DNA from: an uncultured delta proteobacterium
GTDB taxonomy: Bacteria; Myxococcota_A; Polyangia; Polyangiales; Polyangiaceae
Reading direction: 5' to 3'
DNA length: 64,000 nt
Assembly: GCA_963716725.1 (NCBI GenBank)
Contig: CAVQUB010000005.1
Coordinates: 416,001 to 480,000 of the forward strand
Shown: positions 15,182-30,392 of the stretch, in pieces
Numbering within the stretch: position 1 is the stretch's first letter
Layout of the letters: each line of letters starts with the position of its first letter
Notes under the pieces: model-generated
What the model was told of the DNA's origin: nothing
What the model saw: only the letters and a program-made list of their open reading frames with translations
Database searches by the model: none
Translations under genes and position numbers: made by a program

Positions 15182-16822
15182 ATGGCCGCTCGCGCGTATC
15201 TCGGGGTGGACGTCGGTACCGGTAGCGTGCGGGCCGGGCTCTTCGACGGCGCCGGCGGCAGACTCGGGATCGGCGTCGAACCCATCGAGACCTTTCGCCC
15301 CGAGGAGGACTTCGTCGAGCAGTCCTCCGACGACATCTGGCGCGCGGTGCGCGTCGCTGTGCACCAGGCGATGACCGGGGCAGCGCTCGAACCGAGCGAC
15401 GTCGCCGGCATCGGCTTCGACGCGACCTGCTCGCTGGTTGCGCTCGACGGCGAGGGCAGCCCCGTCAGCGTCAGCCCCACCGGAGCCGAACGGCAGAACG
15501 TCATCGTCTGGATGGACCATCGCGCGACCGAGCAGGCGCTCCGCATCAACGCGCTGGGGCACGAGGTCTTGCGCTACGTCGGCGGCGTCATCTCGCCGGA
15601 GATGCAGACACCGAAGCTGCTCTGGCTCGCCGAGCGACACGCGACGGCGTGGCAGAAGACCAAACTCTTCTTCGACCTGCCCGATTTCTTGGTCTGGCGG
15701 GCGACGGGCAGCGACGTGCGCTCGCTCTGCACCACGGTCTGCAAGTGGACCTACCTCGGTCACGAAGACGGCGGACGCTTCCGCGAGGACTACTTTCGCC
15801 AGATCGGACTCGGGGCCCTGGCGGACGAAGGCTGGGCGCGCATCGGGACCCGGGTGCGTCCGATGGGCGAGCGCGCGGGCGGGCTCACCGAAGCCGCGGC
15901 TACGGAGCTCGGTCTCGCGGCGGGCACGCCCGTCGGCGTGTCGATCATCGACGCGCACGCAGGAGGGCTCGGTCTGCTCGGCGCGCGCCTCGACGGCCGG
16001 GCGCCGGACGCCGAGACGCTCGAGCAACGCGTCGCTTTGATCGGCGGCACCTCGAGCTGCCAGATGGCGGTGAGTCGCGAGCCCAAGTTCGTGCCGGGGA
16101 TCTGGGGACCGTACTACTCGGCGATGATCCCCGGGCTGTGGCTCACCGAGGGCGGCCAGAGCGCGACGGGGGCCTTGATCGATCACGTGATCGAGAGCCA
16201 CGCGCGCGGTCCCGAGCTCGCCGCGGAGGCCCGACGGCGGGGCACGAGCGTGTACGCGCTGCTCAACGAGCGCCTCGAGGTGTTGGCGCAAGGCGCGCCC
16301 TTCCCTGCGGCGCTCGCCCGCGAGCTGCACGTCTTGCCCGACCATCACGGCAATCGCTCGCCCCGGGCCGACCCCTCGCTGCGGGGCATGATCAGCGGGC
16401 TCAAGCTCGGCGACGGCGTCGACTCGCTGGCCCTGCTCTACCTGGCGACCATTCAAGCCATCGCCCACGGCACGAGGCACATTCTCGACACCATGAACGC
16501 AAACGGCTACCGAGTCGACACCATGATGGCCTGCGGGGGCGACACCAAGAACCCGATCTTCTTCGAGAGCACGCCGACGTGACGGGCTGCCGCATCGTGC
16601 TTTCGAAGGAGCCCGAAGCGGTGCTGCTCGGCTCGGCCATGCTCGGCGCCGTCGGCATCCGGCGATCATTCGAGCGTGCTCGACGCCATGGCCGCGATGA
16701 ACACGGCCGGTCGCGTGGTCGAGCCGGCCGGGGGCGCCGTCGCCAGCTTCCACCAGCAGAAGCACGCGGTGTTTCAGCGTATGCACGCCGATCAGCTGGC
16801 GTATCGCCAGCTGATGCGCTGA
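15182..16822 (+). CDS. FGGY-family pentulose (ribulo)kinase, frameshifted twice near the 3' end
   Basis: '[12 protein letters not shown]', '[10 protein letters not shown]', 'VWMDHRA', 'IDAHAG', 'EGGQSATG', 'GNRSPRADP'; C-terminus continues in other frames ('[22 protein letters not shown]', then '[12 protein letters not shown]'). Confidence 0.9.
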
Positions 16823-16840
16823 AGTCCGGGGCTGATCTCG

Positions 16841-17572
16841 CTACTGGTACCGTGCGATGTCATCGGTGAACGAGCTGATCTTGCTGTCGTAGCCGCCGCA
16901 TGCTTTCGGCACACCGGGTTCCGTGCTGCTGCGCTGGTACAAACACTGAACCAAGAGCGCCTTCTTGTTCCCGACCCGTGACTCGGTCGCGCCCCCGCCT
17001 TTCTTCAGGCTCTCGATGGTCTTGTAGCCATCGTCGCGCCCCGAGACGTCGAGGAGCAGCACCTTGTAGATGTGTACCTCACCGTAGGGTCCCTTCTTCC
17101 CGAGGCTCACGGTGGCTGACCAGCCGACGGAGTTCGATTGCTCGCCGCTGATGTCGTAGCCGTAGTGCATGTACGCGGAGGAAATCTTGCTGCGAACGTC
17201 CGAGGACGAGAGCGAGTCGACGGGATAGGTCTTGGTCGCGTCGTCGTCGTCACTCTTCGACGCGGACGCGCTGGCGCCCTTGCAGCCCGACGCGCAAGTG
17301 ACGAAAGAGGCCGAGTCCTTCGCGTCCCCGACGCATTTCGTGGTGCATTCGTAGCGTTCGGGCTCGTCGCTCTTCATCTTTTCGAGACTGGCGACGCAGC
17401 CGGCCATCTTCGTCTCCGACGACTCGGGCGACTTGCCCTCCGACTCCTCGGCTCCCGCGAACTTCATCGCCTTTTCGCAGAGCTTCTTGGGCGAGGGCTT
17501 CAGCAGCTTGCAGGCGAAGAGCGTGCAGCAGATCACGACAAGCGGGCCGAGTGCAGAGCGAGGTGTGGTCAT
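16841..17572 (-). CDS. hypothetical Cys-containing lipoprotein
   Basis: Hydrophobic N-terminus ending LFAC; Cys-rich N-domain; GC3-biased codons. Confidence 0.7.
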
Positions 17573-22151: not shown

Positions 22152-22601
22152 TCAGGGGCTGAACTGGAAGGTCCAGCTCGCCGCCGTGGCGTCCCGGGCC
22201 GCGTTGAACGAGATCGCGACGATGCCCTGGGTCAGACACGCGTGCAGGGCGCGATCGGCGAGGGGAACGCCTGGCAGGGTGATGCCCGGCGGCGGGACGT
22301 CGGTGGCTCGGACCACCTGACCCTGCTGCGCGATGTCGAAGAAAATCGTGGCCGTCCCGCTCTTGCCCAGCACGAACGACTCACTGCGCCGGTAGCAGTC
22401 GGAAAAGCGCGCGGTGTTCGCGGTGACTGCCGCAGAGATGTCCTCGCGGCTTCGCTCCGGCAGGTGCGCGACGGAGGGCGGTGCCCCTTGCGCCGGCCCG
22501 GGCTCGAAGGGTGGCGGGTAGCGCGGCGGAGGGCGAGCGGGAGCGCTGGATTCGCAGGCGATGAGCCCGACCGCAAACAGGGTGGGTACAACTCGTTGCA
22601 T
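22152..22601 (-). CDS. lipoprotein with AgmX/PglI (TonB C-terminal-like) domain
   Basis: GGAGG SD, lipobox LIAC, Pro-rich linker, 'FSDCYRR..SGTATIFFDI..G.V..LHACL..WTFQF'. Confidence 0.7.
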   Translation of the reverse strand: MQRVVPTLFAVGLIACESSAPARPPPRYPPPFEPGPAQGAPPSVAHLPERSREDISAAVTANTARFSDCYRRSESFVLGKSGTATIFFDIAQQGQVVRATDVPPPGITLPGVPLADRALHACLTQGIVAISFNAARDATAASWTFQFSP

Positions 22602-22702
22602 TTCGCCTCCGCCTATTTCGCCCATCGTGGAGTCGTCCGCCATCGATTTTCCGGCGGACTGGTTTGACGAGCCCCTGCGCCTCTGCAAAGACCTCCGAGT
22701 TC

Positions 22703-23941
22703 ATGGGCTCCCCGCTCCGCGTGTTGCTCGCAGCGCTGACGTTCAGCGCGCTGTTCGTGGCCACGCGGCCTGCGCACGCTTACACCTGGATGATCCGCCA
22801 CGGCTACGGCGGTTGCACCACCTGTCACACCGATCCATCCGGTGGCGAGACGCTCACCCGGTACGGACGCGCACAGAGCGACCTGCTCTTGCGCATGCGC
22901 TACGGCGGTGCCAGCGCATCGACCGCGGCGGGCGGCAGCGAACAACCGAGCGCTTCGTCGGGCTTCTTGTGGGGACTCTTCGAGCAGCCCGACTGGATGC
23001 TCTTTGGAGGCAGCCTGCGCAGTGCGGGCCAGCTCAGCGGCAGCAAGTTCCGTTACTTCCCGATGCAAGCGGACGTCTACGGCCAAGTCGCTTTCGGTCC
23101 TGTGCGGATCGGCGGCAGCCTGGGCGCCGCGAAAGTAAAGTCCGGTTCGCCCCACGCTCGCGCTGCGCAAGTGACCGCCAATCAAGGCGATGAGCTCAAT
23201 TTGATTTCGCGGACCCACTGGCTGGGCGTCGACTTCGGAGGCCCTGGTGATTTGCGCCTGCGAGCGGGGCGACTGAACCTGCCCTTCGGCATCCGCATGA
23301 GCGAGCACATCATGTGGGTTCGGGAGGCGACGCGCACCGACCGCGAGTCCGATCAGCACCACGGCGCCGCTATCGCGTTCAACGGCAGTCACCTGCGCGG
23401 CGAACTCATGGCCATCGCGGGCAACTACCAGGTCAGCCCCGACCGGTATCGCGAGCGCGGTTACAGCTTGTACCTCGAGGCGCTGGCGTCGCGCTCCGTC
23501 GCGGCAGGCGCGAGCAGCTTGCTCGCTTTCTCGAAGGCCGACCGGATCACGTTGGAGCAAGGCAGCACCGCTCGGGGCGCGCACGGAGCCTTTGCGCGCT
23601 TCGCGCCGGCGCCGCCCCTGGCCATCTTGGTGGAGGCCGACGCACTGCACCTGTCCCGGCGCGACCTGGGCTACGTGGGGTTCATCCAGGCGGACTACGA
23701 GCCCGTTCAAGGTCTGCACTTCAGCGCGACGGGGGAAGTGGCGGACCTTGGCTACCAGCGGCGGCCCGGCGACTCGCTCGGCATCGACCGACCGCGGCGG
23801 CCCGGCGCCGGCGAGCCGCGCTTCGGCGGCTGGCTCACCGCGGATTGGTTCTTTCTGCCGCATTGCGAGCTACGCGTCGACGCCATCGTTCGTCAGGACG
23901 ACCCCTTCACCCTGCTCAGCCAACTGCACGTCTTCCTGTGA
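22703..23941 (+). CDS. outer-membrane beta-barrel with N-terminal c-type heme motif (Cyc2-like cytochrome-porin)
   Basis: Signal peptide ending AHA; CTTCH at 22814-22828 followed by 'TLTRYGR'; amphipathic beta-strands ('LRLRAGRLNLPFG', 'GYVGFIQADYEP'); C-terminal 'QLHVFL'. Confidence 0.75.
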   Translation: MGSPLRVLLAALTFSALFVATRPAHAYTWMIRHGYGGCTTCHTDPSGGETLTRYGRAQSDLLLRMRYGGASASTAAGGSEQPSASSGFLWGLFEQPDWMLFGGSLRSAGQLSGSKFRYFPMQADVYGQVAFGPVRIGGSLGAAKVKSGSPHARAAQVTANQGDELNLISRTHWLGVDFGGPGDLRLRAGRLNLPFGIRMSEHIMWVREATRTDRESDQHHGAAIAFNGSHLRGELMAIAGNYQVSPDRYRERGYSLYLEALASRSVAAGASSLLAFSKADRITLEQGSTARGAHGAFARFAPAPPLAILVEADALHLSRRDLGYVGFIQADYEPVQGLHFSATGEVADLGYQRRPGDSLGIDRPRRPGAGEPRFGGWLTADWFFLPHCELRVDAIVRQDDPFTLLSQLHVFL

Positions 23942-23946
23942 CCGCC

Positions 23947-24444
23947 ATGATCTCCAAGCCCCCATCAACGCGAGGCCTCGGCACCACGGCATTGCTTCTG
24001 CTTTGGGCTGCGTCCGCGGTGGCCTCGCCGGAGTACCCGACCGCCGTGCAAGAGGCAGCGGGGTCGCCTTGTCCGCCTCCTTGCACGCTGTGCCACGAGA
24101 CCACCAACGGCGGCTTTGGCACGGTCACCAAGCCCTTTGCGGACGCCATGCTCAACGACGGGCTCGAGGGCGAGGACGTCTCACTGGTGGCGCCCGCTAT
24201 CGAAGCGCTGCGAGCCAATCAGATCGACAGTGACGACGATGGCGTCGGCGACATCGCGGAGCTGGCGAGCGGTCGGGACCCGAACCTCCCGGGCGGGGGC
24301 GACCTGTGCGGGCCCCAGTACGGTTGCGGCGCGCAGGTCGCATCGGCCCCGGCGGTCGGCGTCCACGCGCTCGCGCTCGCACTCGCGGGTGCGGCGTTGC
24401 TTGGCGCTCGCCTTCGTCGCCGTCGCAGCGCAGCGCGCGGGTGA
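23947..24444 (+). CDS. secreted monoheme cytochrome c with DxDxDG motif and MYXO-CTERM-type anchor
   Basis: Signal peptide; CTLCH at 24082-24096; 'DSDDDGVGDIAEL..GRDP'; tail 'YGCG..ALALALAGAALLGARLRRRR'. Confidence 0.75.
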   Translation: MISKPPSTRGLGTTALLLLWAASAVASPEYPTAVQEAAGSPCPPPCTLCHETTNGGFGTVTKPFADAMLNDGLEGEDVSLVAPAIEALRANQIDSDDDGVGDIAELASGRDPNLPGGGDLCGPQYGCGAQVASAPAVGVHALALALAGAALLGARLRRRRSAARG

Positions 24445-24466: not shown

Positions 24467-24677
24467 ATCGCCAAGACCGCCACCCGTGGCGCCGCGTCGT
24501 CGGATTGGCGACCGCTGGCGCCCGTTCCGCCATTTTCTCGGTTTTCTGGGGTTGCGCTCGCGTCCTTCTTCGAAAATCCCGACAAATAAGGGCTGACGCG
24601 CCCTCGCCTGGGAGAGTACCCTCCGCCCCCGTTTCGGCCCCATCCCTGCCGTGCTCCGCAGGCCGAAAGCTCCGGTC

Positions 24678-25223
24678 ATGGACCCCATCGCATTTGGCAT
24701 CGTCGCGGCCTGCCTGCTGCTAGCAGCGCTGCTCGTGGTGACGAGCAAGAACCTGGTGCACGCGGTGCTGTGGCTTGCCGTGACGCTGGCGACCACCTCG
24801 GCGCTCTTCGTGCTGCTGCAGGCGCCGTTTCTGGCTGGCATTCAGGTCCTGCTCTACACCGGCGGCGTCATCACGCTGATGCTCTTCGGGGTGATGCTCA
24901 CCCGCCGTCACGAGCGAGTATTCATCGAGAACGAGACCTCAGCACGGCGGCGTTTCCCAGCGCTCCTCGCCGCCGGCGTCCTCTTCGGAGTCATCGCGTG
25001 GGCCACCGCCCGGACGCCCAACTTGCCGAACCGACCGGGTCGCTACGTTACCGCCGACGAGATCGGGAAGTCCTTCCTCGGGGAGCACCTGCTCGCCTTC
25101 GAGCTGCTCAGCATCTTGCTCCTGATCACCATGATCGGCGCCATCGTGCTGGCGCGAAAGGTCGATTTCGGCAAGCAGCAAGCGCGGGGCGTCCCAGTTC
25201 GCGGCGAGAGGGCGGCCCGATGA
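24678..25223 (+). CDS. nuoJ: NADH-quinone oxidoreductase subunit J
   Basis: 'KNLVHAVLWL', 'APFLAGIQVLLYTGGVITLMLFGVML', 'FELLSILLLITMIGAIVLAR'. Confidence 0.93.
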   Translation: MDPIAFGIVAACLLLAALLVVTSKNLVHAVLWLAVTLATTSALFVLLQAPFLAGIQVLLYTGGVITLMLFGVMLTRRHERVFIENETSARRRFPALLAAGVLFGVIAWATARTPNLPNRPGRYVTADEIGKSFLGEHLLAFELLSILLLITMIGAIVLARKVDFGKQQARGVPVRGERAAR

Positions 25224-25519
25224 CGATGCAGCCGCTCATATTGCTGTCTGCGGCGCTGTTTTGCGTCGGCATCTACGGCGTGGTGTCGCGCCGCAACGTG
25301 ATCGGCATCCTGCTCAGCGTCGAGCTGATGATGAACGCCGTGAACATCAACTTCGTGGCTTTCTCGCACCACCACGGCAGCCACGTCGGCCAGACCTTCG
25401 CCCTGTTTTCCATCGCGCTCACCGTGGCCGAAGTGGTGGTGGGGCTGGCGCTCGTGATTTTGCTCTACCGCTCGCGCAAGGACGTGGCGGTGGACGGCGC
25501 GCGGGCGCTCGGGGAGTGA
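25220..25519 (+). CDS. nuoK: NADH-quinone oxidoreductase subunit K
   Basis: 'GIYGVVSRRN..LLSVELMMNAVNINFVAF..AEVVVGLAL'. Confidence 0.93.
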   Translation: MTMQPLILLSAALFCVGIYGVVSRRNVIGILLSVELMMNAVNINFVAFSHHHGSHVGQTFALFSIALTVAEVVVGLALVILLYRSRKDVAVDGARALGE

Positions 25520-25523
25520 TGAG

Positions 25524-27351
25524 ATGATCCTTGGTCTCACCCCCGTGACTTGGGCGCTCGTGGCGCTTTTCGGGCCCGCCCTCGCGGCGCTGATCATCGG
25601 CGTGGCTGCGCCGCTGCGCAAGCAGGGCAAGCCAGCGGCCTACTTGGCGGTGGCGGCGGCCGCGCTGTCGCTGCTCGCGGCCGTCGCGCTCATGCTGCGC
25701 CAACTGGGCGCGCCGGCGGAGGCGCTGGTCACGACCACGCGCTGGTTGCCCTCCGCGGGCCAGACCATCGCCGAGATCGGCGTGCGCATCGACGGCATCA
25801 GCGTGCCCATGTTGCTGGTCGTGACGCTGGTGGCCACCTGCGTGCAGGTCTTCTCCCTCGGCTACATGGCCGACGAGCCGCCGCCGGCCTTCGGCCGCTA
25901 CTTTGGCTACCACTCGCTGTTCATCTTCAGCATGAACACCCTGGTGCTCGCACCCAACGTGCTCCAGCTCTTCGATTGGCTGGGAGCTGGTCGGGCTGAC
26001 CAGCTACCTGCTCATCGGCTTCTACTGGCAGAAGCCCAGCGCAGCGCGCGCGGCGGTGAAGGCCTTCTGGATCACCAAGCTCGCCGACATCGGCTTCGTC
26101 GCCGGCGTCGTGTTGCTCTTCGTTTCGACGGGAAGCTTCAGTTGGACGGCGCCATCGGATCCGACGCTGCACATGTGGATCGGCTTCTGCCTGTTCGTCG
26201 CCGTCATGGGCAAGAGCGCACAGTTCCCGCTGCACGTCTGGCTGCCCGACGCGATGGAAGGCCCGACGCCGGTGTCGGCGCTTGCTGCACGCCGCCACCA
26301 TGGTCGCCGCCGGTGTCTACCTGGTCGTGCGCGCAAATCCGCTCTTCGAGTCCGCTGCCGGTGCGCGAGCTCATGACCTGGCTCGGCGCGTTCACGGCGC
26401 TCTTCGCCGCCGTGCATCGCGGTGGTGCAGACCGACATCAAGAAGGTGCTCGCCTACTCGACCTGCTCGCAGCTCGGCTACATGGTCAGCGCGCTGGGCG
26501 CGGGCTCGCTCATGGGCGGCTACTTCCACCTGACCACCCACGCGTCGTTCAAGGCGCTGCTCTTCCTCGGGGCCGGCAGCGTGATCCACGCGGTGCACTC
26601 CAACGAGCTTTCGGACATGGGCGGGCTCTGGAAGCAGATGAAGCTGACGGGCGCCACCTTCGTCGTCGGCGCGCTGGCGCTGGCGGGCGTGCCGGGCCTG
26701 GCGGGCTTCTTCAGCAAGGATCTGATCCTCGAGGCTTTGTACGAGAAGCAGCAATTCGGTCCCCTCGGCATGCTGATGGTCGCGGCCTTCTTGACCGCCT
26801 TCTACATGGGACGCGTCGTCTTTCTGACCTTCTTCGGCAAACCCAGCAAGAAGGCGAAGCACGCCCATGAAGGCGGGCTCAGCATGCAGGCCCCGCTGGT
26901 GCTGCTCGCGGTGCTGGCGCTGGTGGCGGGTTACTTCGGCAACCAATTCGCCGCTCTCTATGGCACCAAGTATCACTTTCACCTGGGCGCGGTCGGCGGC
27001 ATTGCGACGGTGCTCGGCTTGGGCGGCATCCTGCTGGCCTATTTGATCTACGGCAGGCGCTCGGTGCCCGAGTCGACCTTCGCGTTCCTCGGGCCCGTCG
27101 GGCGGCTCGCGCGTTCGGGCGCAGTGGACCGCGCGTACCTGTTCGGTTTCCACAAGCTCGCGCTCGGCCTCGCCGGGGCCATCGGCTGGTTCGATCGCTA
27201 CGTGATCGACGGTCTGATCAACCTGTTGGGCTGGGCCACCATCATGGCTGGCCGGCGTGTGCGCAGGATCCAGACCGGCAACGCCGCTGACTACGTCTAC
27301 GCGGTCATCGCCGGCGCGGTCGTGCTCGCCACCTGGGGCGTCCTCCGATGA
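25524..27351 (+). CDS. nuoL: NADH-quinone oxidoreductase subunit L (about 4 frameshifts)
   Basis: Pieces in successive frames: 'SLGYMADE', 'WELVGLTSYLLIGFY', 'GKSAQFPLHVWLPDAMEGPTPVSA', 'HAATMVAAGVYL', 'QTDIKKVLAYSTCSQLGYM', 'THASFKALLFL'. Confidence 0.9.
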
Positions 27352-28932
27352 TGGGTCTGCCGCTGCTCAGCCTGATCGTGGCCGCGCCCTTCGTGGCCGC
27401 GCTGATCTTGTTCGTCGTGCCTGGCGCACAGCGCGGGCTGGTGCGCTGGATTTCGCTCCTGGGCGCGTCGGTGTCGCTGGCCGGCAGCGTGCAGGTCGCG
27501 CGCGTGTACGACCTGGGCCAGGGTGGCCTGCAGCTGCCGGAGCGTTATCCGCTGGTGCCGAGCCTCGGCATCGAACTCAACCTGGCGGTCGACGGCTGGG
27601 GCGTGTCGCTGCTCCTGCTCACCGGCATCATCATCTTCGCCGGGGTGCTCGCGAGCTGGACGCTGAAGGAGCGCGACAAGGAGTTCTTCATCTTCTTGCT
27701 GGTGCTCGTCACCGGCGTCTTCGGCGTCTTCGTCTCGCAGGACCTGTTCGTCTTCTTCCTGTTCTACGAGATCGCCGTCCTGCCGATGTACCTGCTGATC
27801 GGCATCTGGGGTTCGAGCCACGCGGTGACCGAGGCAGGGCCCTTCCGCTTCGTGTGGAAGCTACTCGACATCGGCGGCCAACGAGTACGCGGCGATGAAG
27901 CTGACGCTGATGCTGCTGGTCGGCTCGGCCTTCATCCTGGTCGCCATCTTCGCCATGTACGTCGAGGCGGGCGCGCGCACCTTCGACATGGCCGTGCTCG
28001 GTAGCCACCCTTACAGCCGCGGATCTGCAGCTGTGGGCGTTCCCGTTCCTCTGGCTCGGCTTCGGCTCGCTCGGCCGGCGTCTTTCCCTTCCACACCTGG
28101 TCGCCCGACGGCCACGCCTCGGCGCCGACCGCGGTGTCCATGCTGCACGCCGGCGTGCTGATGAAGCTCGGCGCCTTCGGCGTGATGCGAGTCGGCATGG
28201 TGATGCTGCCCGAGGGCGCTCAGGTCTGGGCACCCTGGGTCGGCGGCGTCGCCGTCATCAACATCGTCTACGGCGCGCTCTGCGCCATGAGCCAGAAGGA
28301 TCTCAAGTACATCATCGCGTACTCGTCGGTCAGCCACATGGGCATCGTCATGCTCGGGGCGGCGACGCTGACGCCCAACGGCTGGAACGGCGCCGTCTTC
28401 CAGATGTTCGCCCACGGCATCATGACCGGCCTGTTCTTCGCCCTGGTCGGCCTGGTCTACGAGCGCGCGCACTCACGCCACGTGCCCAGCATGGGCGGCT
28501 TCGCCAAGACCGATGCCGGCGGTCGCGGTGTTCTTCACGCTCGCCGGCCTGTCCTCGCTCGGCCTGCCGGGCACCGCCGGCTTCGTCGCCGAGATCCTGG
28601 TCTTCCTCGGCGCCTGGCAGAGCCCGCATTGGTGGTGGGCGATCCCGGGCATCGTCGGCGCGTTCATCACGGCGGTCTACGTGCTGCGTGCCGTGCGGCA
28701 GATCTTCTGGGGTCCCGGACCCAGCGAGAAGTTCCACGATCTCTCCGACGCCTCCAAGACCGAGTGGGGCGCGCCCATCGTGCTCGGGACCTGCATCGTG
28801 GTCTTCGGCGTCTACCCGGTGATCGTCCTGGACTACATCGACAAGGCGACGCCGATGTACCTGCAGCAGGCCAAGGGCACATCGCGCCTGGCTCGAGCAC
28901 CGGCAACAACGCAGCCGCGAGGTGAGCGGTGA
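27348..28932 (+). CDS. nuoM: NADH-quinone oxidoreductase subunit M (about 4 frameshifts)
   Basis: 'FFLFYEIAVLPMYLLIGIWG', 'EYAAMKLTLM', 'FPFHTWSPDGHASAPTAVSMLHAGVLMKLG', 'DLKYIIAYSSVSHMG', 'SLGLPGTAGFVAE'. Confidence 0.9.
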
Positions 28933-30392
28933 ACGTCTCCCTCGCCGATCTCCTGCCGCTGAGCCTCGATCTGGCGCTGTGCGCCGGCATCTTGCTCACC
29001 TTCGTTGCCGACCTGCTCTCGGGGCCAAAACCGAACCGCGCCATCGGCGTGATCCCGGCCGCCACTTTTGCCGGCGCGCTGATCGCGTCGTTCCAGATGG
29101 ATCTCGACGGCAGCGCCTTCGGTGGCGCGTATGTCGGCGATCATTGGTCGCTCTTCTTCAAACGCGCGTTCCTGGCGGCGGGTCTCTTGACCACGCTCGG
29201 CAGCATGGATCACGTGGCGGAGCGTCAACCCCACCGGCAGGGCGAGTACTACCTGCTCTTGATGTGCAGCGTGCTCGGCATGACGCTCCTGCCGGGCGCC
29301 CGAGATCTGGTGCTGCTGATCGTCGCCTTCGAGCTGATGGGGCTGCCGCTCTTCGTGCTGGCTGCCTTCGCCAAGACCGAAGATCCGAAGGGCGTCGGCA
29401 AGGACGGACCCGAGGCGGCGCTCAAGCTCTACCTGGTCGGCGCCGTGAGCGCGGCCCTCACGCTCTTTGGCATGTCCTTCGTCTACGGCATGACTGGCGC
29501 GACCCGCATCGAGGCCATCGCCCAGACCCCGGTGACGCCCCTCTTCGTCGTGGGCGTGATGCTGGTGCTCGCGGGCATGGCCTTCAAGATCGGCGTCGTG
29601 CCCTTCCACATGTGGGTGCCTGACACCTACCAGGGCGCGCCCACGCCCTTCGTGGCCTTCCTGTCAGTGGCCCCCAAACTCGCTGGTTTTGCCGCCCTCG
29701 CCACGCTGCTCATGCACGGCTTTGCCCAGGTGCGGAGCGAATGGCAGCCGATCCTGATGGCGCTCTCGCTGGTCAGCATGGTGCTCGGCAACCTGCTCGC
29801 GGTGGTGCAGACCAACGTGAAGCGCATGCTGGCGTACTCCGGCATCGGGCACGTCGGCTACATGCTGATGGCCTTCATCTCTGGTGCCGGTGGCACCACC
29901 ATGCTGCTGTTTTACTTCGTCGCCTACTTGGTCACCAATATCGGCGCATTCCAGGTCGTCGAGGCCGTCGAGCGCGAGAGTGGAGACTGCTCGCTGGCAG
30001 CATTTCGAGGCATGTGGAAGCGCTCGCCAATGCTCGCTTTTGCGATGCTGATCTTCCTGCTCTCGTTGGCGGGCATTCCCTTCGTGGTGGGCTTCTGGGC
30101 CAAGCTCTACGTGTTCATCGCCGCCTGGCAGAGCGGGCTCTACCTGCTGGTGATCTTGGGCGCCGTGCTGGCCGTGGTCGGGCTCTTCTACTACATGCAG
30201 GTGGCTCGCTCGATGTACATGACGCCGCCTGACCACGACCGCCCGTTCCGGGCCCCGCCTGCGCTCATGCTGTCCGTGGTGCTCTGCTTGGTAGGCGTGG
30301 TGGCCTTCGGCGCCTGGCCGCGGAGCGTGCTCGACGACGCGACCCGCGCGACGCAGCCCTTCGTGTCGGCGCGAGCGGCGCTGCTGCGCTGA
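28929..30392 (+). CDS. nuoN: NADH-quinone oxidoreductase subunit N
   Basis: 'EAALKLYLVG', 'FKIGVVPFHMWVPDTYQGAPTP', 'QTNVKRMLAYSGIGH', 'LSLAGIP'. Confidence 0.95.
   Translation: MNVSLADLLPLSLDLALCAGILLTFVADLLSGPKPNRAIGVIPAATFAGALIASFQMDLDGSAFGGAYVGDHWSLFFKRAFLAAGLLTTLGSMDHVAERQPHRQGEYYLLLMCSVLGMTLLPGARDLVLLIVAFELMGLPLFVLAAFAKTEDPKGVGKDGPEAALKLYLVGAVSAALTLFGMSFVYGMTGATRIEAIAQTPVTPLFVVGVMLVLAGMAFKIGVVPFHMWVPDTYQGAPTPFVAFLSVAPKLAGFAALATLLMHGFAQVRSEWQPILMALSLVSMVLGNLLAVVQTNVKRMLAYSGIGHVGYMLMAFISGAGGTTMLLFYFVAYLVTNIGAFQVVEAVERESGDCSLAAFRGMWKRSPMLAFAMLIFLLSLAGIPFVVGFWAKLYVFIAAWQSGLYLLVILGAVLAVVGLFYYMQVARSMYMTPPDHDRPFRAPPALMLSVVLCLVGVVAFGAWPRSVLDDATRATQPFVSARAALLR

Follow-up and report, generated by a model that had tools for sequence, protein, structure and literature searches.

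Two adjacent genes on the forward strand of a 64,000-nucleotide (nt) window (the whole stretch of DNA analysed; contig CAVQUB010000005.1 of assembly GCA_963716725.1, an uncultured member of the Polyangiaceae) probably encode an undescribed route for electrons across the outer membrane, which is Cyc2-like in build and lies outside the Cyc2 family. The first gene, P0001, encodes a porin of 412 amino acids (aa) with an N-terminal monohaem domain, and the second, P0002, starts after a gap of 5 nt and encodes a secreted protein of 165 aa with a sorting tail; both open reading frames are intact and carry a single CxxCH haem c motif (Table 1). Particular to the module are the apparently surface-sorted partner and its predicted docking on the outer face of the barrel. 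The first-pass annotation, made from the sequence letters, had listed the reading frames and their coordinates, the CxxCH positions, the 5-nt spacing, the QLHVFL end of P0001, and the DxDxDG loop and Gly-Cys/transmembrane/RRRR tail of P0002, all of which are present as described.

The signal-peptide junction of P0001, read from the sequence, lies between AHA and Y, and the haem motif CTTCH (residues 38-42) has Cys38 as the 12th mature residue. Because only about 0.0015 CxxCH motifs are expected per 412 aa under the genome's own composition, the motif is not a chance occurrence. An AlphaFold2 model computed from 125 sequences (mean pLDDT (predicted local distance difference test) 91.3; predicted template-modelling score 0.89) has a short helical domain at the N-terminus and after it 16 barrel strands, joined alternately by long loops and short turns, and ends at the QLHVFL terminus. 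The top matches of this model in VIA-align were OprO (Z 25.1) and OprP (Z 24.8; root-mean-square deviation 3.0, about 296 residues aligned), and Foldseek returned general porins; the closed beta-barrel anticipated in the first-pass annotation is thus also what structure prediction gives. The ESM Atlas returned uncharacterised Myxococcota clusters, the nearest named cluster having Porin_O_P on 20% of its members. Sequence searches with P0001 gave no significant match in Pfam or NCBIfam and no match in the PDB, and no precomputed Pfam domain was found on its 120 listed homologues.

Of 8000 scored candidates, 1355 proteins fell into the barrel family at E ≤ 0.001; at 50% identity the family counted 1706 clusters, with E ≤ 1e-30 for 297. 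Its named members are hypothetical proteins of Polyangiaceae or Myxococcaceae. CxxCH is kept in 120 of 121 barrel sequences, all but one shorter entry of 360 aa, and in 97/100 full-length representatives of the 50%-identity clusters. Many invariant Arg, Glu and His residues lie in the barrel, and His202, Met236, His339 and His409 are among its conserved positions. Sister haem-plug barrels, clearly homologous to the P0001 family across the barrel, occur in other Myxococcota, some with one haem motif (loci L221-L227 and L241) and some with two (L228-L239); many of these adjoin small lipoprotein-type cytochromes, not the partner described here.

P0002 carries CTLCH (residues 46-50), DxDxDG (94-99) and YGC (125-127), followed by a hydrophobic helix (hydropathy peak at residue 136) and RRRR. 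CxxCH is present in 97/97 aligned partner sequences, of which 46 were selected by CxxCH itself and the other 51 were not; with the barrel counts above, this bears out the conservation of both haem motifs that had been named as a check. The Gly-Cys is likewise invariant (97/97), and a basic cluster follows it in 95. Two extra Cys co-vary (both in 56 sequences, neither in 38, one in 3), a pattern suggestive of a disulfide between the haem loop and the anchor, and outside CxxCH no His, Met or Lys is conserved among the 97 sequences. The partner model is confident (pLDDT 90.1); a search of solved folds returned no match (Foldseek best E 6.5; VIA best Z 3.1), which implies neither a different nor a new fold. 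The partner N-terminus aligns to the haem region of the barrel protein with 90.7% probability over 58 columns. A homologue is carried by the cultured species Pendulispora albinea (WP_394829145.1).

The host genome holds the myxosortase core (NF040914, 150 bits), GspD (TIGR02517, 475 bits), more than 50 MYXO-CTERM tails, and CcmE with cytochrome c assembly proteins. MYXO-CTERM proteins are cleaved by MrtX and brought to the surface via type II secretion (the T2SS), and their lipidation has been proposed (PMC11980579). The term "cytochrome" is absent from the main text of two MYXO-CTERM papers. Two candidate relatives of the partner were set aside: a temptin-domain likeness was dropped because no such Pfam match occurs among the 97 members, and the anammox Ca-binding cytochrome Kustd1711 was rejected for its classical His/Met fold. 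The haem/TSP3 domain of the partner is also found at the N-terminus of secreted proteins of about 450-500 aa with two CxxCH (L280-L284, L286 and L287), which likewise start x-P-x after the signal peptide and are possibly related to NF041762, a model that 30/97 partners match weakly. Tandem duplicates of the partner gene at four loci (L006, L063, L071 and L252) suggest interchangeable surface caps.

For the complex, the mature barrel, the partner up to its tail Cys and two haems were co-folded. The score was 0.74 (runs 0.81, 0.72 and 0.74) against 0.00 for three controls; 116/157 solved pairs and 2/215 mismatched pairs reach the mark applied, counts that are only a rough guide for this complex. 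The contacts agreed to at least 82%, with a partner pLDDT of 76 or more. The barrel contributes residues 147-166, 242-249 and 279-286, the loops after strands 3, 7 and 9, all of them long odd-to-even loops and so extracellular by the usual topology rule; the partner contributes P-Q-Y-G (residues 123-126) and residues 42-47, including its first haem Cys. This model supports binding of the partner to the extracellular loops, and because those loops are predicted to face outwards and the tail is of a surface-sorting type, sorting signal and docking side agree. The small cytochrome is predicted to cover the pore mouth. No similar solved complex was found.

The pairing recurs across genomes. The partner lies directly downstream of the barrel in 58/71 loci; one of the remaining 13 ends at a contig edge, and in 10 of these 13 genomes that were tested the partner gene was found elsewhere (10/10). 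Across 301 evenly drawn Myxococcota genomes, in each of which few candidates were scored, a strong barrel match (E ≤ 1e-80) occurs in 29, the same 29 have a strong partner match (E ≤ 1e-20), and the genes are adjacent in every one of them; gene linkage, put forward earlier as a check on the proposal, thus stands. The sole apparent barrel-partner fusion (L054) is a frameshift, and the longer proteins searched yielded none, which is weak evidence. In genomes labelled Myxococcaceae (L244-L248) the partner lies away from the barrel, right after a small-cytochrome-like gene in 4/5, and loop L2 of the Myxococcaceae-type barrels differs from the Polyangiaceae form.

Relatives add a third gene. By neighbourhood clustering, a YceI-family gene is present in 44/71 loci, in 34 of them directly upstream on the same strand. 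Of the 29 carrier genomes, 26 have the corresponding YceI clade (E ≤ 1e-30), against 0/272 of the others; seven other sampled genomes gave weak matches near 1e-22. Two representatives score 55 and 64 bits on PF04264 (cut-off 23.7) and have a signal peptide, and the clade matches solved YceI structures. Within the limited flank available, no cognate YceI was seen beside 20 sister-barrel loci. The module is thus usually one of three genes with a dedicated YceI clade: the two-gene module of the first-pass annotation holds as a conserved pair and is incomplete as a description of the whole. Purified YceI proteins have been found carrying ubiquinone-8 or isoprenoids and have cytochrome b561 as a partner (PMC9113575); Cellvibrio Cbp2D has a YceI domain in fusion with c-type cytochromes (PMC10154616).

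The relation to Cyc2 was assessed with motifs and profiles. Cyc2 is defined by AXPXFAR[Q/K][T/Y] before and PXL after CXXCH, with a length of at least 365 aa, and OprO and OprP are the templates reported for its barrel (Keffer et al., PMC8406198). P0001 resembles it in having a signal peptide (read from the sequence), a single N-terminal CXXCH, sufficient length (412 aa) and a predicted 16-strand OprO/OprP-like barrel. Set against Acidithiobacillus ferrooxidans Cyc2, Mariprofundus Cyc2 PV-1, Ghiorsea Cyc2 TAG1 and Leptospirillum Cyt572, it also shares the register, with A-x-P-x-F/M-x-R, Cys as the 12th mature residue and LT.[YF]GR after CxxCH. The defining motifs themselves are lacking: AXPXFAR[Q/K][T/Y] was found upstream of CXXCH in 0/150 cluster representatives of the barrel family, and PXL shortly after CXXCH in 0/100 full-length representatives. 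Where Cyc2 has the former, the P0001 family reads AY[PAT]WMI[RK]HG, as had been noticed in the replacement of the canonical PxFARQ, and keeps only A, partly P, R/K and the spacing; in place of PXL it reads DPSGG.

The comparison sets for the profile alignments were defined by motif, not by named proteins, and consisted of 80 metagenome loci fetched by the Cyc2 motif (56 complete proteins kept) and 23 AxPxFAR-type proteins from Myxococcota. The P0001 family aligned to the three Cyc2-motif groups with probabilities of 24-82% over at most 71 columns, around the haem only, whereas these groups aligned to one another end to end (98.7-99.8% over 331-356 columns). After masking of CxxCH, the N-terminal match fell to 6-55% between the family and Cyc2, against 98.9-99.6% among the Cyc2 groups. 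The test is weakened by the failure of barrel-only alignment between some Cyc2-motif groups as well (3.6-10.5%), so that a remote common ancestry of the P0001 family and Cyc2 may exist. With both motifs absent and the profile likeness confined to the haem region, we place the P0001 family, on sequence grounds, as a sister family of the same design and not as a member of Cyc2. The claim that an N-terminal monohaem fused to a porin defines Cyc2 is accordingly not supported in that form, as Myxococcota also carry Cyc2-type genes separately; the guess of a separate clade is supported. Neither the surface cytochrome partner nor the cognate YceI was seen beside 104 Cyc2-type loci, within a limited flank. 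A Cyc2 profile matched 35/301 Myxococcota genomes, nearly always over the N-terminal part only, and loci L255-L277 are AxPxFAR[KRQ]Y-type Cyc2-like genes of this phylum; published surveys report Cyc2 calls in Myxococcota genomes, by which true Cyc2-type genes may be meant.

The mechanism that we propose, at about even chances, is a two-haem relay across the outer membrane linked to quinone carried by YceI. Both proteins would receive one covalent haem c in the periplasm, as the motifs and the host Ccm genes suggest. The barrel would fold into its 16 strands, as modelled here, and the haem domain would enter the lumen from the periplasmic side, as proposed for Cyc2. The partner would be lipidated at its tail Cys, cut by myxosortase and exported by the T2SS, following the MYXO-CTERM pathway, and would then dock on extracellular loops L2, L4 and L5, its contacts being the P-Q-Y-G-C segment and the haem-binding loop, as complex modelling supports, so that the second haem comes to lie over the pore mouth. 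Judging from co-occurrence and known YceI ligands, the dedicated periplasmic YceI would carry quinol and quinone between the inner-membrane pool and the plug haem; where YceI has been lost, as here, another carrier would have to take its place, unless the module works without one. Myxobacteria use menaquinone. Menaquinol has a potential of -60 mV (PMC7908018), and we consider outward flow of electrons likeliest, given the low potential of menaquinol as a donor, the predicted capping of the pore mouth and the lack of a linked respiratory partner. Electrons would pass from quinol to the plug haem, then to the surface haem and on to an oxidant outside the cell (an Fe(III) or Cu chelate, a radical or a surface enzyme). 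The work done would be low-flux redox chemistry of the envelope and not lithotrophic Fe(II) oxidation.

A more specific form of this relay, which we regard as doubtful, is a three-part wire in which a YceI quinol shuttle feeds the porin plug haem and this in turn a C-terminally lipid-anchored monohaem cytochrome of new fold on the outer loops, with both haems perhaps ligated by the N-terminal amine. In cytochrome f the N-terminal amine ligates the haem. All three protein types, like cytochrome f, start x-P-x-[F/Y/M] right after signal cleavage; alternative candidates for the sixth ligand in the barrel are Met30, His33 and His202. Electron paramagnetic resonance of a Cyc2 gave two axial haem ligands (PMC13692758), AlphaFold 3 models of Cyc2 one (PMC13741234), and an N-terminal amine, if used, would supply the second ligand missing from the models.

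Several observations weigh against the relay or against parts of it. In 2 of the 10 genomes with the partner elsewhere, the top partner match adjoins a second barrel paralogue. The E-value cut-offs behind the 29 linked pairs were placed at score gaps after the scores had been seen, and the 29 carrier genomes fall into 6 families, 17 of them in one, so that as kin they are not independent. The tail of P0002 scores 14.5 bits on TIGR03901, under the 20-bit curated cut-off, and 17/97 partner members match at E ≤ 0.01 (best 2.3e-5); the authors of that model state that membership needs curatorial review. The MYXO-CTERM assignment of the first-pass annotation fits the tail by its invariant Cys, transmembrane helix and Arg cluster, with a hidden Markov model (HMM) score below the cut-off for P0002 itself. 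The source genome has lost its cognate yceI: both same-genus genomes keep the gene at its ancestral position next to rsmG, and the matching stretch of contig C21 is contiguous here without it, while two unrelated YceI genes remain. In those same-genus genomes yceI also lies away from the gene pair. Because two further carriers (G099 and G276), like the source genome, are without a cognate YceI, this component is dispensable or replaceable. The locus has no conserved gene for an inner-membrane quinol oxidase or for a periplasmic cytochrome. Efficient electron tunnelling needs roughly 14 Å or less, and the plug haem may lie too far from the surface haem. Computation gave the folds, the conservation, the linkage and the predicted docking; that haem attaches, that the partner reaches the surface, that electrons pass, that quinone is involved and which way the flow runs are what we infer.

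Three other functions were considered for the same parts. It is unlikely, in our estimate, that the module is a haem-gated channel with a lid, in which plug haem and surface protein control or detect the passage of small cargo, hydrophobic or anionic, that YceI receives in the periplasm (for example quinones or isoprenoids scavenged from prey), the haems being switches and not wires. The closest solved folds are indeed the solute channels OprO and OprP, the invariant barrel Arg, Glu and His seem to be more than a sheath that only insulates would call for, the partner is predicted to sit lid-like over the pore mouth, and YceI is a lipid carrier; yet two invariant c-type haems on binding partners are the usual signature of electron transfer, and since sister barrels pair with unrelated lipoprotein cytochromes, the constant feature is the partner haem and not a cargo-binding fold. 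A functional equivalent of Cyc2, whose surface haem would accept electrons from donors outside the cell (Fe(II), Mn(II) or reduced humics) and pass them inward to the quinone pool for energy, we consider quite unlikely. Polyangiaceae and Myxococcaceae, the hosts of this family, are not known to oxidise iron, and 8 of the 29 carrier genomes hold a separate Cyc2-type gene in addition. The shared architecture, the same spacing from mature N-terminus to CxxCH and the match of LT.YGR to LTxFGR speak for this function, as does the report of a Cyc2 whose potential goes down to -130 mV (PMC13692758), a value at which a low-potential quinone could be reduced; against it stand the absence of both Cyc2 motifs and the predicted covering by the partner of the pore mouth, the proposed point of Fe(II) uptake in Cyc2 (PMC13692758).

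Very unlikely, finally, is a sensor or scavenger with haems that act at the surface on NO, O2 or peroxide, by binding or detoxification, or that signal the redox state outside the cell, with no net electron flux into metabolism. The partner has no conserved His, Met or Lys to act as sixth ligand, so its haem may have an open site, and pairs of YceI and cytochrome b561 guard against lipid peroxidation (PMC9113575); on the other side, the N-terminal amine could fill the sixth site, and genes for regulation or signalling are not conserved next to the module (TetR-family genes at 10/72 loci, sigma-factor genes at 8/72). The two-haem relay, with outward flow, remains our preferred reading.

Table 1. 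Features of the gene pair in the window.
Feature	Position	Strand	Remark
Haem-plug porin P0001: signal peptide, N-terminal monohaem c domain, predicted 16-stranded OprO/OprP-like beta-barrel; 412 aa	22703..23941	+	
Predicted Sec signal peptide ending A-H-A; Ala at -1 in 98% of cluster representatives	22703..22780	+	read from sequence
Barrel CxxCH haem c attachment motif (CTTCH), then family motif DPSGG..LT.YGR	22814..22828	+	
Extracellular loop L2, residues 147-166; within the surface on which the small cytochrome is predicted to dock	23141..23200	+	
Extracellular loop L4, residues 242-249, within conserved GNYQ..PD..RERG; tightest predicted contacts with partner P-Q-Y-G	23426..23449	+	
Small secreted monohaem c protein P0002, TSP3-like acidic loop, MYXO-CTERM-type tail; 165 aa	23947..24444	+	
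Partner CxxCH haem c attachment motif (CTLCH)	24082..24096	+	
DxDxDG, TSP3-like putative Ca2+ loop	24226..24243	+	PF18884 at E ≤ 0.01 in 31/97 members; motif in 85/97
YGC, linker, transmembrane helix and Arg cluster: MYXO-CTERM-type sorting tail; Gly-Cys invariant	24319..24426	+	
Terminator-like hairpin 3' of P0002	24516..24542	+	weak, not above shuffles (2 found; shuffle mean 2.2)

A promoter scan at the locus found none. The divergent gene at 22152-22688 (-) has a weak match to the AgmX/PglI C-terminal domain (28 bits, cut-off 40), and such a gene adjoins the pair in only 3/72 loci, those of the closest relatives. Downstream, the pair is followed by an NADH-dehydrogenase-like operon (24651-30392), in which subunit J was identified by library match and the other genes are presumably K, L, M and N. 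The L- and M-like genes appear split across frames, as does a sugar kinase near 15182-16869, probably by assembly indels. A functional link of the pair to the NADH-dehydrogenase-like genes was rejected, as this neighbourhood is not conserved in the other 71 loci.

Known electron routes across the outer membrane are either multihaem conduits or the single-protein Cyc2. The module points to a third and minimal design, in which a sorted cytochrome would sit on the surface and a quinone shuttle may operate on the inner side, and its hosts are abundant myxobacteria of soil and wastewater. It offers a concrete and testable answer to how one plug haem might be linked to either side of the membrane, a question that Cyc2 raises too, and it warns that an N-terminal CxxCH and a porin are not by themselves evidence of iron oxidation. 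In the literature listings and paper passages covered, no description of a haem-porin/surface-cytochrome module was found, nor any paper combining Cyc2 with YceI.

Among known systems, MYXO-CTERM surface proteins such as TraA share with the partner the invariant Cys, the transmembrane helix and the Arg cluster, in a host that has the MrtX core and GspD, and differ from it in that the partner tail lies under the HMM cut-off. BcnA-LcoA (YceI and cytochrome b561) and Cellvibrio Cbp2D are alike in tying a quinone-binding-type YceI genetically to haem proteins, but the partner haems here would be in or on the outer membrane and not in the inner membrane or a secreted enzyme. Genes for multihaem cytochromes with 8 to 20 CxxCH lie elsewhere in the source genome (C15:410620-414511, C13:333418-334803 and C5:660799-669263). 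With one CxxCH per protein and a fused 16-strand barrel, the gene pair does not have the layout of a multihaem cytochrome threaded through a separate large porin. In MtrCAB of Shewanella and Pcc of Geobacter, an outer-membrane barrel, an internal haem carrier and a lipid-anchored surface cytochrome form the conduit. The module described here is predicted to repeat that plan, with a haem inside the barrel and a cytochrome anchored by lipid and exposed at the surface on its outer face, but where those systems use large separate barrels, multihaem wires and an N-terminal lipid anchor, it would use 16 strands, one fused haem, one monohaem partner and a C-terminal anchor.

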